Below are positions 4,196 through 8,329 of a stretch of 64,000 nt of DNA, piece by piece; the stretch's first letter is position 1; each line of letters begins with the position of its first letter. The notes under the pieces are model-generated. The model was not told the origin of the DNA, did not search any database, and worked only from the letters and a program-made list of their open reading frames with translations. The DNA comes from Escherichia phage ECML-359. The position numbers were made by a program, and so were the translations under genes. Location: the sequence record OL631482.1, one strand, 5' to 3'.

Positions 4196-4223
4196 ACGTT
4201 TCTCTTTAGTTGATTTATAAAAA

Positions 4224-4246
4224 AGCCCCAACCTTTCGGAAGGGGC
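4224..4246 (-). terminator. hairpin terminator after 4285..4668
   Basis: agccccaacctttcggaaggggct. Confidence 0.45.
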
Positions 4247-4284
4247 TATACCTTGTCGGGGTTCCACCTGCAAGGCAAGTGTTC

Positions 4285-4668
4285 TTATCCGCGAGCGAAT
4301 GCCATTGCGGCGCGTTCGTTGGCACGGTCGGTGATGTTCAAGAATTTATCACGAGCGATTTCGATTGGAGCGCCAACCCAGTCAGCAGCACCATTACCTG
4401 GAGACTGTTTAGGGCGAACCATATAAGTTGAAACTTTAGAACCGGCCAGTTTGGCACCTGGTGCCGCGGCATTTTTAACGTCTTTAGCTTTGATGCCAAA
4501 CCCAGTTACGATACCCCAAGAAACACCATTAACTGGTTTCTTGAACATAACACGGTCACCAATTGAAACACCGGCTTTTTCTGGAGCCACTAAAGAAAAT
4601 TTACCAGCTTCAGTCAGTACGGATTCGGTGATGGTATTGCGATTTAAAAATTCTGCATATGTAAGCAT
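4285..4668 (-). CDS. internal-protein-like protein with capsid-targeting-like N-terminus
   Basis: N-terminus MLTYAEFLNRN resembles T4 internal-protein leader MKTYQEFIAEA; TATAAATA late promoter on minus strand just upstream (about 4702-4709). Confidence 0.55.
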   Translation of the reverse strand: MLTYAEFLNRNTITESVLTEAGKFSLVAPEKAGVSIGDRVMFKKPVNGVSWGIVTGFGIKAKDVKNAAAPGAKLAGSKVSTYMVRPKQSPGNGAADWVGAPIEIARDKFLNITDRANERAAMAFARG

Positions 4669-4701
4669 TTTGTTTTTCCATTATTAGGGTTGTTGTTAAT
4701 A

Positions 4702-4709
4702 TTTATATT
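4702..4709 (-). promoter_or_regulatory. late promoter TATAAATA
   Basis: reverse complement of tatttata about 40 nt upstream of ATG of 4285..4668. Confidence 0.5.
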
Positions 4710-4715
4710 CCATAG

Positions 4716-4900
4716 TACCGGATGCACCATCCGCTCGGATTTCTCATACTACCGGACGCACCGTCCGCTCTGGAAAAACTCCGTTAAAAGGGTGCGCCGT
4801 TTCAGCTGTGGTAGTAAAGAACCAGAACACAGTAAAACTGTGGGAGGAACTATACTTCAGGGAACGTCAGTCCGACGACTTACCGGTAGCGACCCGGTTT
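4716..4900 (-). ncRNA. candidate small structured RNA downstream of the tRNA genes (position analogous to T4 stable RNAs C/D)
   Basis: two near-identical short hairpins (ccggatgcaccatccg / ccggacgcaccgtccg) as a direct repeat; no convincing ORF; same strand and just downstream of tRNAs. Confidence 0.25.
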
Positions 4901-5156
4901 CTCATTCAATTGTAATAGCTAATTTGACTTTAACAACCTTATAATTGGAATCAAGGTCATTGAATTCCATAAAATTTGTTGCTAATCTGCGAGTCGGGAA
5001 ACTTAGATATTTATTATGCTCAGGTGGAGCAGTTAATGCAAACCATGGGACTTGTTTATCATTTTCATCAAACTCATCAAAGCTATAAACCAGCTCGTTG
5101 TTGGTTATATCCATAACTGCATATGATTCACTAATAACCATAATATCCTCGGTAAT

Positions 5157-5233
5157 TGGTCGGGGTGGTGGGATTCTAACCCACAACCTACGGTTTAGAA
5201 GACCGTTGCTCTATACAATTGAGCTACACCCCG
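5157..5233 (-). tRNA. tRNA-Arg (anticodon TCT)
   Basis: Hand-folded cloverleaf: acceptor CGGGGTG/CACCCCG, anticodon loop CTTCTAA, T-arm GTGGG-TTAGAAT-CCCAC, encoded CCA. Confidence 0.85.
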
Positions 5234-5309
5234 GGTGGCCCCATCCGGACTTGAACCGGAAACCTGCCAGTTATGAGCCGGATGCTCTAACCAATTGAGC
5301 TACAGGGCC
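5234..5309 (-). tRNA. tRNA with CAT anticodon (Met by anticodon; the T4 counterpart with CAU is tRNA-Ile)
   Basis: acceptor GGCCCTG/TGGGGCC, D-arm GCTCAATTGGTTAGAGC, anticodon loop CTCATAA, T-arm CCGG-TTCAAGT-CCGG; directly abuts tRNA-Arg. Confidence 0.8.
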
Positions 5310-5314
5310 TAAAA

Positions 5315-5584
5315 TTAAATTACAAATCCAGCGGGAGCATTATCATCTTTAACCATATGCTGAATTGTATGATAAGTCATTTCTTCTGGTGCAACCAGAT
5401 AAGCCGCCGTATTAACCAACGGGATTAATTTGACTTTATTGAATGTTGAACAACCAATTGACATAAAGGTTTCACCTGTTGGATGCTGAATTTCACCAAA
5501 TTGGCACTCATACGAAATAGAGCAACGTTTGGTAGTGGTTGTCTTTGTTTTAGGGTCGTAAAAAGCTAATTTTAATACTAACAT
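5315..5584 (-). CDS. hypothetical protein
   Basis: 89-aa ORF immediately upstream of tRNA genes on same strand. Confidence 0.5.
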   Translation of the reverse strand: MLVLKLAFYDPKTKTTTTKRCSISYECQFGEIQHPTGETFMSIGCSTFNKVKLIPLVNTAAYLVAPEEMTYHTIQHMVKDDNAPAGFVI

Positions 5585-6808: not shown

Positions 6809-7063
6809 TTATTTTTTAGGGATACGATAGTAACGCATCTCAACATCTTTCTGCTTGTGCCACTTTTTGATAAGGTCTTCAGAACCTTTAATGGTAACGA
6901 TGTCATAGCGACCATCATGCGATACTTCAGCACTTAACTGCATGAAGTTGTCTAGTGAACGGCGCAATTCCTCATTAGAAAAACTACCACGCGGGGAACC
7001 AACATAAGCAAACTCAACTTTTGCATCTGCGGCTTCGTTAATAAATTCTTGATAAGTTTTCAT
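6809..7063 (-). CDS. internal protein (capsid-targeting leader MKTYQEFINEA)
   Basis: N-terminus matches T4 IP capsid-targeting sequence; 84 aa; own promoter cassette. Confidence 0.75.
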   Translation of the reverse strand: MKTYQEFINEAADAKVEFAYVGSPRGSFSNEELRRSLDNFMQLSAEVSHDGRYDIVTIKGSEDLIKKWHKQKDVEMRYYRIPKK

Positions 7064-7119
7064 GTTGTCTCCAGTAGTTGATGAGATAATTATACTGCAG
7101 TTATCCCATCGCGTATACT
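7064..7119 (-). promoter_or_regulatory. early promoter in stem-loop (internal-protein cassette)
   Basis: gatgagataattatactgcagttatcccatc; -10 TATAAT. Confidence 0.5.
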
Positions 7120-7362
7120 TTATTTTAAGTCTTCCAGACGTTTTTTCATCTTGGTGCCGTTCTTAGCAATCTCGCCTGCATCAGAACAAAGAGCAAGGAG
7201 AGCTTTAACTTTACCCTGGTCGCCTTTAAAAGATGATGCATCTACTGAATCAGCAAGTTCTTTGATACGTGCAAACAGGCGCTCTGCTTCAGCAAGGGCT
7301 TGACCAAGTTTAACTTCCATACCATGGGAAGATTCTGTTATAAATGTTTGATAAGTTTTCAT
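7120..7362 (-). CDS. internal protein (leader MKTYQTFITES)
   Basis: capsid-targeting-like N-terminus; 80 aa; own promoter cassette 7363-7407. Confidence 0.7.
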   Translation of the reverse strand: MKTYQTFITESSHGMEVKLGQALAEAERLFARIKELADSVDASSFKGDQGKVKALLALCSDAGEIAKNGTKMKKRLEDLK

Positions 7363-7407
7363 GTTGTCTCCAAGCCATAAAAAGGGGATAATTATCCCCT
7401 TTTGTTA
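7363..7407 (-). promoter_or_regulatory. perfect 24-nt palindrome aaaaggggataattatcccctttt (terminator/promoter cassette)
   Basis: perfect inverted repeat between two internal-protein genes. Confidence 0.5.
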
Positions 7408-7707
7408 TTACATCTTACTACCACGAATTACGCCATAAGCAGCGAAGTCGTCAGTGATATTTTTAGGAGTGTTTTTACCCGTTTCAATGAAAGCGATGCT
7501 TGATTTCTGACTAAAAGAGGTAATTTTGTTATAGTTAGAGTCAAGGAAGGTATAACCATTTTTACGCAGCTGGTCAAAGTCTTCAGCGTCGCCTTTACCT
7601 TTGAAGTCAACCCATTTGTAGGTGTTTTTCTTCTGAAGGCCCAGAGGCCAGGTTTTTGCTTCTGCCAGGTAATTGTTTTCTACCAAAAATTCATGAAAAG
7701 TTTGCAT
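7408..7707 (-). CDS. internal protein (leader MQTFHEFLVEN)
   Basis: capsid-targeting-like N-terminus; 99 aa. Confidence 0.65.
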   Translation of the reverse strand: MQTFHEFLVENNYLAEAKTWPLGLQKKNTYKWVDFKGKGDAEDFDQLRKNGYTFLDSNYNKITSFSQKSSIAFIETGKNTPKNITDDFAAYGVIRGSKM

Positions 7708-7715
7708 TTGAAATC

Positions 7716-7988
7716 CTATTTAAGATAAATTGCGTATTTTTTATAACCAGCCGTCTCATGGCGAAGACCCTTGTCATTGGCAAAACGCTCAATGTTATTA
7801 ATTTGGTTCTGGTCAAGTTCTGAAATGCCAAACGCGAAAAAGTTGCGTTTGTTGCCAATTGTTATATGGTCAGTTAAGTCAATGCTATACAGGTGATTGA
7901 TATTGTCAATCATAGCTTTGACTGCTTTACTAATTTTTACTTCTTCATTTAGTTGTGACTCGTTGAAAAATTCATTGAAAGTTTTCAT
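7716..7988 (-). CDS. internal protein (leader MKTFNEFFNES)
   Basis: capsid-targeting-like N-terminus; 90 aa. Confidence 0.65.
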   Translation of the reverse strand: MKTFNEFFNESQLNEEVKISKAVKAMIDNINHLYSIDLTDHITIGNKRNFFAFGISELDQNQINNIERFANDKGLRHETAGYKKYAIYLK

Positions 7989-7996
7989 AAGAAACC

Positions 7997-8329
7997 TTAT
8001 TTATAAAGTTTTGCTAGTTCTTTACGTCCGCGAGCAGACATAATAAATTGTTCATCGCCAATTTTAAAATAAGCCATACCGCCGTCAACAGCGATACCAA
8101 TTTCTTTAGTACCTTCTTTGCCTTTCCACTTGCCACCAGATTTCAGGACAGCTTCAACTGCAGCTTTGGAATATTTGGACGTTTGAAAACGTTCATTACC
8201 AATCTGAAAGAAAACACCATCTGCATTTTTGGTTAAACCAAATTTCAGGGAGCCTTCACTATCATCAATTGATTTGGTCTCATTGATGGCGGATTCGGCT
8301 AAAAACTCGTTGTAAGTTTTGATGTTCAT
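7997..8329 (-). CDS. internal protein (leader MNIKTYNEFLAES)
   Basis: capsid-targeting-like N-terminus; 110 aa; early promoter stem-loop 8330-8393 upstream. Confidence 0.65.
   Translation of the reverse strand: MNIKTYNEFLAESAINETKSIDDSEGSLKFGLTKNADGVFFQIGNERFQTSKYSKAAVEAVLKSGGKWKGKEGTKEIGIAVDGGMAYFKIGDEQFIMSARGRKELAKLYK

Follow-up and report, generated by a model that had tools for sequence, protein, structure and literature searches.

In phage T4, the ribosome-binding sites of genes e, soc, 49, and I-TevI are hidden by RNA structure on early read-through transcripts; as a late promoter is situated within this structure, the late mRNA can be translated (PMC3014915). Another association of promoter and structure, the PeSL-like promoter and stem-loop element, flanks internal-protein (IP) loci (PMC2839356), and the two stable RNAs of T4, rnaC and rnaD, are still of unknown function (PMC3014915, PMC9697503, PMC12685909). 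Here we compare with these systems a locus of Escherichia phage ECML-359, analyzed within a stretch of 64,000 nucleotides (nt) of sequence record OL631482.1 that we refer to as the window. The locus, at positions 4716-4900, contains two short hairpins that a preliminary description had put forward as a candidate stable small RNA. A stable RNA is probably encoded in this interval, but as an orthologue of rnaD and not as the hairpins, which our alignments identify as the first element of a cassette, made up of a late promoter and a gene, that replaced rnaC. The features that bear on this conclusion, from the 5' to the 3' side of the gene strand, are the following.

4905..4791, minus strand: orthologue, close to certainly, of T4 rnaD (nhmmer, blastn, alignment with T4)
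4790..4283, minus strand: cassette in place of rnaC, with spacer, anti-Shine-Dalgarno segment, two hairpins, late promoter, 5' untranslated region (5'UTR), and a gene for a protein of 127 amino acids (aa) (alignment with P479, SP18, and T4)
4771..4779, minus strand: GUUUUUCCA, candidate anti-Shine-Dalgarno arm directly 5' of hairpin 1 (9-nt complement of 4680..4672)
4753..4767, minus strand: hairpin 1, CGGACG-GUG-CGUCCG, in repeat unit 4745-4774 (repeat, folding, covariation; covariance model score 44 bits)
4719..4733, minus strand: hairpin 2, CGGAUG-GUG-CAUCCG, in repeat unit 4711-4740 (repeat, folding, covariation; covariance model score 43.6 bits)
4700..4707, minus strand: TATAAATA, T4-type late promoter -10 element (sequence match; expected transcription start near 4694)
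4672..4680, minus strand: UGGAAAAAC, with a GGA Shine-Dalgarno element 8 nt before the ATG at 4668; proposed 3' arm of a masking helix (complementarity)
4285..4668, minus strand: 127-aa gene with an internal-protein (capsid-targeting)-type N-terminus, MLTYAEFL..ITESVLTEAG (open reading frame list)

The case for rnaD begins with a T4 rnaD model, of which positions 1-118 of 119 cover 4905..4792 (nhmmer, E = 1.7e-13). By blastn, 48/50 positions are identical to T4 rnaD at the 5' end and 19/20 at the 3' end; after a common AATGAG, the 5' 44 nt are identical to T4, and conservation returns in the final ~20 nt (CACAGCnGAAACGGCGCACC). T4 rnaD (NC_000866 71053-71171, annotated as 'small, stable RNA; species 2 RNA') agrees with the window copy in strand and in its order relative to tRNA-Arg, and the window has the T4-like succession of tRNA-Arg (5233..5157), rnaD (4905..4791), and terminator (4247..4218), all on the minus strand. 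The T4 RNA differs in its length (119 nt, compared with 115 nt in the window), in its central ~50 nt, which represent another allele, and in lacking the insertion of a 79-aa gene between tRNA-Arg and rnaD. The preliminary description had correctly pointed to the T4 stable-RNA locus, and had proposed a comparison with T4 RNAs C and D. The likeness is confined to the right-hand part of the reported interval, two thirds of which consist of most of rnaD, and excludes the hairpins, which are neither rnaD nor rnaC; our sequence searches recovered rnaD end to end and no rnaC.

The window phage is of the T-even type and belongs to the genus Gaprivervirus, with Escherichia phage pEC-M719-6WT.2 as its nearest relative (99.5%) and VR20, TH40-55, UPEC01, MN01, and DK-13 as other near relatives. 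Homologs of rnaD are found in 745 phage records, and rnaD is annotated in none of the close relatives inspected. The center of the RNA (~50 nt) is allelic, occurring in three unrelated versions among nine near-identical Gapriverviruses, and this diversity suggests cassette-like exchange inside a small RNA. As a whole, rnaD is a mosaic whose ends are nearly invariant from T4 to the Gapriverviruses and whose center exists in at least four unrelated alleles. A consensus fold of five alleles, one of them an incomplete row, comprises a 5' hairpin (ACCGG/CCGGU) and a closing helix (GUCGUCG/CGGCGC) at a weak energy of -8 kcal/mol (RNAalifold). A sigma70-like sequence, TTGTTA-16-TACAAT (4936..4909), stops 4 nt short of the 5' end of rnaD; such matches occur at chance level.

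What occupies the position of rnaC? In T4, P479, and SP18, rnaC (the 'species 1 RNA' of T4) is located between the 3' end of rnaD, which terminates in GGCGCACC, and a conserved element starting with ACACTTGCCTTGCAGG together with its terminator. The same slot in the window holds the 508-bp cassette, in which a 20-nt spacer precedes hairpin 1, hairpin 2, TATAAATA, the 5'UTR, and the 127-aa gene. The swap is exact, with junctions at GGCGCACC and ACACTTGCC that are the same as those flanking rnaC in the three other phages. T4 rnaC carries a T-arm (GGTTCGAATCC) and an acceptor-like stem, neither of which has a counterpart at 4700-4790, and is not similar in sequence to this region; searched against the whole window, it gave chance matches only, at E values of at least 3.4 (blastn with word size 7, nhmmer). 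The missing similarity, the missing T-arm-like domain, and the other architecture together argue that rnaC was replaced and did not diverge. We therefore rejected the hairpins as a homolog of rnaC, there being no rnaC-like sequence in the window and no tRNA-like or Rfam match at 4700-4790. The ACACTTGCCTTGCAGGTGGAACCCCGACAAGG element and the terminator have been kept from T4 to the window phage and always end the stable-RNA unit, after rnaC and cassette alike.

The components of the cassette appear to travel together. The hairpin region is present in 15 phage records, all Gapriverviruses, and the 127-aa protein in exactly those 15. This protein has no Pfam or PHROG match, and its amino acid sequence does not differ among 14 of the 15 records (100% identity), the remaining one being 99.2% identical. 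Among nine aligned genomes, its gene nevertheless contains 36 variable columns, all in one codon phase; near-identity of the protein in the face of this variation indicates very strong purifying selection on an orphan protein. The promoter motif TATAAATA agrees with the T4 late promoter consensus, which is established knowledge (PMC3014915), and is equivalently placed upstream of related genes in Kanagawa-, Mosig-, Dhaka-, Karam-, and Tequatro-type phages.

The near-identical direct repeat of the preliminary description is borne out. Its two 26-nt copies (4711-4736 and 4745-4770, in plus-strand coordinates) agree at 23/26 positions (88%) and are 34 nt apart, and a 21-nt core, GAGCGGAYGGTGCRTCCGGTA, occurs exactly twice in 64 kb, with 0.00 occurrences expected from 100 shuffles. 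Each copy is predicted to fold into a 6-bp stem with a 3-nt loop, which reads CAC on the plus strand, as had been stated, and GUG on the minus strand. The minus strand is the coding strand for every gene around the hairpins, including the tRNAs (ARAGORN), and the repeat letters that had been assigned to the tRNA strand are thus antisense. On the minus strand, the two hairpins have predicted stabilities of -9.3 and -7.9 kcal/mol; the plus-strand values are -8.0 and -6.6 kcal/mol. The copies differ at three positions, two of which compensate for each other in the stem (GGATG..CATCC versus GGACG..CGTCC).

A covariance model of the hairpin unit retrieves the two copies only from the 64 kb, the next match scoring 9.6 bits (E = 3.9), and no further copy from the corresponding loci of T4, JS98, JS09, and PG7; with a single locus, the pair is not a dispersed repeat or a PeSL copy. 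Rfam searches of 4500-5400, at gathering thresholds and at E <= 10, returned two tRNAs and noise, with nothing at 4700-4790, and ARAGORN found only the two tRNAs and nothing tRNA-like at the hairpins. Neither hairpin is followed by a U-tract, the sequences downstream being GUAGUAUGAG and GUACUAUGGA, and a terminator scan calls neither, which rules them out as intrinsic terminators. We found no promoter or terminator belonging to the hairpins and no early promoter adjoining the pair. A host origin, or a REP/BIME palindrome, is ruled out by the single locus in the window and by the lack of similarity to host DNA: the hairpin sequence has no blastn match at E <= 10 in 5,426 E. coli genomes, and plasmids are likewise without similarity. 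The fold of the whole intergenic region is no more stable than that of shuffled sequences (z = -0.15) and so gives no sign of one large structured RNA. In IMG/VR, an exact scan for the hairpins found VR20 only, plus two chance matches in GC-rich coding regions, and a looser two-hairpin pattern was swamped by collagen-like GGNGCN repeats, a complementarity filter leaving nothing new. The hairpins are a single-locus, constrained, strand-biased structure, and neither a dispersed repeat nor derived from the host.

Constraint and strand bias are apparent from comparison across phages. In six distinct two-hairpin sequences, 72/72 stem cells fall in standard pairs, and 5 of the 12 pairs are changed on both sides; none of 500 shuffles was as good, and slid controls were paired to 14-56%. 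Among nine Gaprivervirus genomes, the hairpin 1 pair 4764/4756 is A-U in three and G-C in six. In TH40 and TH44, an A-to-G change at 4730 in hairpin 2 yields a G·U pair on the minus strand only, where the hairpin retains -7.3 kcal/mol compared with -1.9 on the plus strand, and a metagenomic Kanagawa-type contig has a U·G pair, again on the gene strand only. These sense-only wobbles (2/2, weak statistically) fit a path from A-U through G·U to G-C on a sense-strand RNA. Between hairpin 1 of the Kanagawaviruses and that of the Gapriverviruses, up to 3/6 pairs differ, all of them compensated, and across genera the GUG loop and the flanking GAG..G are invariant. In the nine genomes, 9/122 positions of the leader vary, compared with 36/128 third-codon positions of the 127-aa gene (Fisher p = 1.5e-5); variation in the leader is about four times below that at synonymous sites.

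Two GUG-loop hairpins in the same arrangement are found in Kosakonia phage 305 and in the Enterobacter phages IME523, CIP9, and Q7622 (Kanagawavirus). Here the hairpins, GAGCAAGCG-GUG-CGCUUGG and GAG(C/U)GGACG-GUG-CGUCC(G/A)G, are 35 nt apart and stand directly 5' of ATAAATA and a gene of ~208-218 aa, the block being flanked by a terminator and an early promoter. The protein resembles the 127-aa protein in its first ~25 residues only (ML.(Y/F).EF..ITESV..TEAG) and is otherwise unrelated; from its sequence, the shared N-terminus is of the kind that marks T4 internal-protein-type capsid-targeting leaders. The Gapriverviruses and Kosakonia phage 305 have 23 nt, TCCAGAGCGGACGGTGCGTCCGG, in common without a single difference, though the genes behind this stretch differ. 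Compared with Kosakonia 305 and IME523, nothing of the hairpin, promoter, and gene block is present in the sister Kanagawaviruses ZX14, KLB31, and PEi20. Beyond this genus, homologs of the ~208-aa gene retain the late promoter, along with a 5'UTR that is similar. On this comparative evidence, the hairpins are an optional accessory of an exchangeable late-gene cassette. Protein-anchored searches of IMG/VR found four loci in all: VR20, with the 127-aa gene as anchor, and three more with the Kosakonia 218-aa gene, among them that of phage fHe-Yen9-01, in which gene and TATAAATA stand without hairpins. A metagenome scan for the loop with a Kanagawa-type promoter yielded one informative new hairpin variant. 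The late promoter of the ~208-aa gene is enclosed, in Kanagawa-, Kagamiyama-, and Winkler-type phages, by a helix of 8 bp, GAAUAUGA/UCAUAUUC, that stops 2 nt before the Shine-Dalgarno sequence; this is a second and different example of a leader helix around a late promoter.

How might the hairpins work? Because the late promoter is located 3' of them in both genera, late mRNAs, which in the window would start near 4694, do not contain the hairpins. Being off the late mRNAs and having no promoter or terminator of their own, they can have a role at the RNA level only in read-through transcripts. That they are a cis-acting RNA structure on such transcripts is, in our judgment, somewhat more probable than not, a statement that includes the insulating function considered below. 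For the more specific function, we propose the following model, to which we give somewhat less than an even chance: the hairpins organize a masked leader on the read-through RNA and thereby hide the ribosome site of the late gene. On RNA continuing from the unit of tRNAs and rnaD, the two hairpins would fold first into a compact leader, acting as staples that shorten an otherwise ~90-nt loop. The compacted leader would allow GUUUUUCCA to pair with UGGAAAAAC and mask the Shine-Dalgarno sequence of the 127-aa gene, which would then be translated only from late-promoter transcripts lacking the 5' arm. A further possible role of the hairpins is to protect the rnaD precursor on its 3' side.

The model is based on complementarity and predicted folding. 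GUUUUUCCA is a perfect 9-nt Watson-Crick complement of UGGAAAAAC, and dinucleotide shuffling of the 106 nt upstream produced a complement of at least 9 nt in 44 of 5000 cases (0.9%). The late promoter (4707..4700) lies between the 5' arm (4779..4771) and the 3' arm with the Shine-Dalgarno sequence (4680..4672). In a local fold of 127 nt, the masking helix has a probability of ~0.98, and masking helix, hairpin 1, and hairpin 2 all lie at ~0.95-0.99; in read-through RNAs of 170-540 nt, the value for the masking helix is 0.7-0.93 when both hairpins are enforced. A different helix, a 19-nt inverted repeat of 79% complementarity (4950..4932 / 4694..4676), spans rnaD and the hairpin region. It was set aside as the structure masking the translation initiation region (TIR): it forms in one fold context only, where it lowers TIR accessibility to 0.41, and its 5' arm lies inside the 79-aa gene, which TH40 lacks.

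Several observations weigh against masking. Read-through from rnaD into the cassette is itself an assumption. In long RNAs folded free of constraints, the probability of the masking helix falls to 0.02-0.04 and hairpin 2 is lost to pairing with the 3' end of rnaD; this competing fold is better by 1.6-2 kcal/mol, and it leaves the TIR no more paired than in the late transcript. GUUUUUCCA is invariant in the nine genomes and UGGAAAAAC is one A shorter in MN01 and TH55, and, with no other change in either arm, the masking helix is without covariation. In the Kanagawaviruses, the hairpins stand outside the promoter-bracketing helix GAAUAUGA/UCAUAUUC and downstream of an intrinsic terminator, and a mechanism common to both genera is not evident. 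In EcS1, CHI14, and Vettismorki, the gene and promoter are accompanied by one degenerate, non-pairing unit, and JS09, JS98, PG7, and fHe-Yen9-01 have no hairpins and an intrinsic terminator directly 5' of the late promoter. Degenerate or missing units beside an intact gene show that the hairpins are dispensable for this gene family.

The presence of a terminator in the latter phages raises the question of whether the pair might be a passive insulator or 3'-end protector, that is, a pause, a termination signal, or an exonuclease barrier that ends the unit of tRNAs and rnaD in place of rnaC and masks no Shine-Dalgarno sequence. The hairpins do fill the slot that the intrinsic terminator takes 5' of the homologous late promoter in JS09, JS98, PG7, and fHe-Yen9-01; their stems are stable and covary; and rnaC, a structured, tRNA-like 3' neighbor of rnaD, is missing here. 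Such a function is nonetheless unlikely, as the hairpins lack U-tracts and are not called terminator-like, in the Kanagawaviruses a strong terminator already stands shortly before the pair, and a simple barrier leaves unexplained why the GUG loop and the GAG..G flanks are invariant across genera.

We consider it about equally improbable that the hairpins act as DNA, their palindromes serving as recombination joints at the end of the cassette or as sites for proteins acting at the late promoter. The maintenance of pairing while the stem sequence changes argues against sequence-specific recognition of the duplex, and both one-sided changes are wobbles on the sense strand only; moreover, 64 kb contain no other copy, unlike the dispersed PeSLs, and no early promoter adjoins the pair. 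On the other side, the pair coincides exactly, in two genera, with the 5' edge of inserted or replaced DNA, the 23-nt TCCAGAGCGGACGGTGCGTCCGG is identical before different genes in the Gapriverviruses and Kosakonia 305, the Kanagawavirus pair follows a terminator, where transcription should be low, and IP loci are flanked by PeSL-like promoter and stem-loop elements (PMC2839356).

The original proposal, that the pair itself is a processed stable small RNA of ~60-90 nt in place of rnaC, now seems quite doubtful. The position is that of rnaC, directly 3' of rnaD and on the same strand, the region is under purifying selection, and it offers two stable, covarying hairpins with conserved loops. Both rnaC and rnaD of T4 are made by processing of a long precursor, which counts in favor of such an RNA. 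Processing would be its sole possible route, however, given that the hairpins bring neither promoter nor terminator with them, and RNase P would find no tRNA-like domain to guide it; homology to rnaC is absent as well. The pair always travels with the late promoter and gene, is degenerate or absent in most phages with the gene, and in the Kanagawaviruses coexists with rnaC- and rnaD-like RNAs, beyond their terminator. It is likewise improbable that the GUG pair represents a new portable RNA module, either a processed stable RNA or platform for an RNA-binding protein of phage or host that functionally replaces rnaC, or a two-state leader in which competing pairing with the 3' end of rnaD couples translation of an injected protein to processing of the stable-RNA precursor.

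The surroundings of the locus add the following features.

5309..5234, minus strand: tRNA-Met (ARAGORN; Rfam tRNA, the tRNA pair scoring 73.7 and 62.2 bits)
5233..5157, minus strand: tRNA-Arg(TCT) (ARAGORN; Rfam tRNA, as above)
5141..4902, minus strand: 79-aa gene in the interval from tRNA-Arg to rnaD (open reading frame list; ATG after the ribosome-binding site GAGGA; phrog_33509)
4218..4282, minus strand: conserved T4-like 3' element ACACTTGCCTTGCAGGTGGAACCCCGACAAGG with intrinsic terminator (4247..4218) (alignment with T4, P479, and SP18)

The two tRNAs form the upstream portion of the transcription unit. In T4, the spacing between tRNA-Arg and rnaD is 1 nt; in the window, the 79-aa gene is interposed, and its TGA stop falls within the first four nt of rnaD. 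The product matches phrog_33509 (E = 4.5e-57), and the relatives' records carry the gene as an annotated coding sequence; TH40 is without it. A gap of 233 nt separates it from the 127-aa gene. The hairpins, which had been described as lying just downstream of tRNA-Arg, are separated from it by both the 79-aa gene and rnaD. The two open reading frames over the locus had been discounted for want of a ribosome-binding site and for overlapping the tRNA. For the minus-strand frame, this does not hold: it is the 79-aa gene itself, and only its TTG extension overlaps the tRNA. The plus-strand frame (4690..4944), antisense to rnaD and the hairpins, is almost certainly spurious, an annotation artifact; in the closest relative it was deposited as a 'hypothetical protein' coding sequence (OQ845958 83157-83411).

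Elsewhere in the window, a run of small minus-strand genes (6809-7063, 7120-7362, 7408-7707, and 7726-7987) encodes capsid-targeting-like N-termini of the MKTYQEF-, MQTFHEF-, and MKTFNEF- types. The run (6809-7987) is probably a hypervariable internal-protein locus. GUG hairpins are absent upstream of the internal-protein-type genes of the window (6809-8000) and upstream of T4 ipI.

What is the significance of these findings? They correct the annotation of a group of coliphages, in which rnaD is unannotated, a spurious antisense coding sequence covers it, and rnaC is absent. They further indicate that rnaC is dispensable, as natural relatives of the T-even phages swapped it for a late-gene cassette and kept rnaD, and phages with rnaD and without rnaC provide a natural comparison for the function of both RNAs. 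The hairpins constitute a testable cis-RNA element, covarying and placed before an internal-protein-type gene. If masking holds true, the device by which genes of the e type are translated only from a late promoter would extend to exchangeable cassettes for virion proteins, and the locus would illustrate how such a cassette can be placed in a transcription unit of the early or middle class and still escape mis-expression. Whereas rnaD was already known, we regard the hairpins as a useful detail of modest interest and not as a new kind of element.

Compared with PeSL and IP-locus elements (Arbiol 2010; Comeau 2014; Repoila 1994 as cited there), the locus shares a module of stem-loop and promoter that bounds an exchangeable gene of the internal-protein type, and its presence or absence likewise varies between close relatives. 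The pair lies at a boundary of insertion or replacement in the window relative to P479 and SP18, and in Kosakonia 305 and IME523 relative to ZX14, KLB31, and PEi20. In PeSL elements, which occur in many dispersed copies, a terminator-like stem-loop is joined to an early promoter, whereas the window has, at a single locus, two GC-rich, GUG-loop hairpins without U-tracts and the late promoter TATAAATA. The leaders of T4 e, soc, 49, and I-TevI differ from the proposed leader in being one local stem-loop; here, the arms are ~90 nt apart and bridged by two autonomous hairpins, and the predicted masking helix is short, A/U-rich, and without covariation. The likeness to these leaders consists in a late promoter between a 5' arm and a 3' arm containing the Shine-Dalgarno sequence, such that late transcripts would drop the 5' arm, and in a late, virion-type gene downstream of an earlier transcription unit. 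The GUG-loop hairpin pair appears to be undescribed, and what it resembles most are the known leader devices of T4 and the promoter and stem-loop ends of cassettes.

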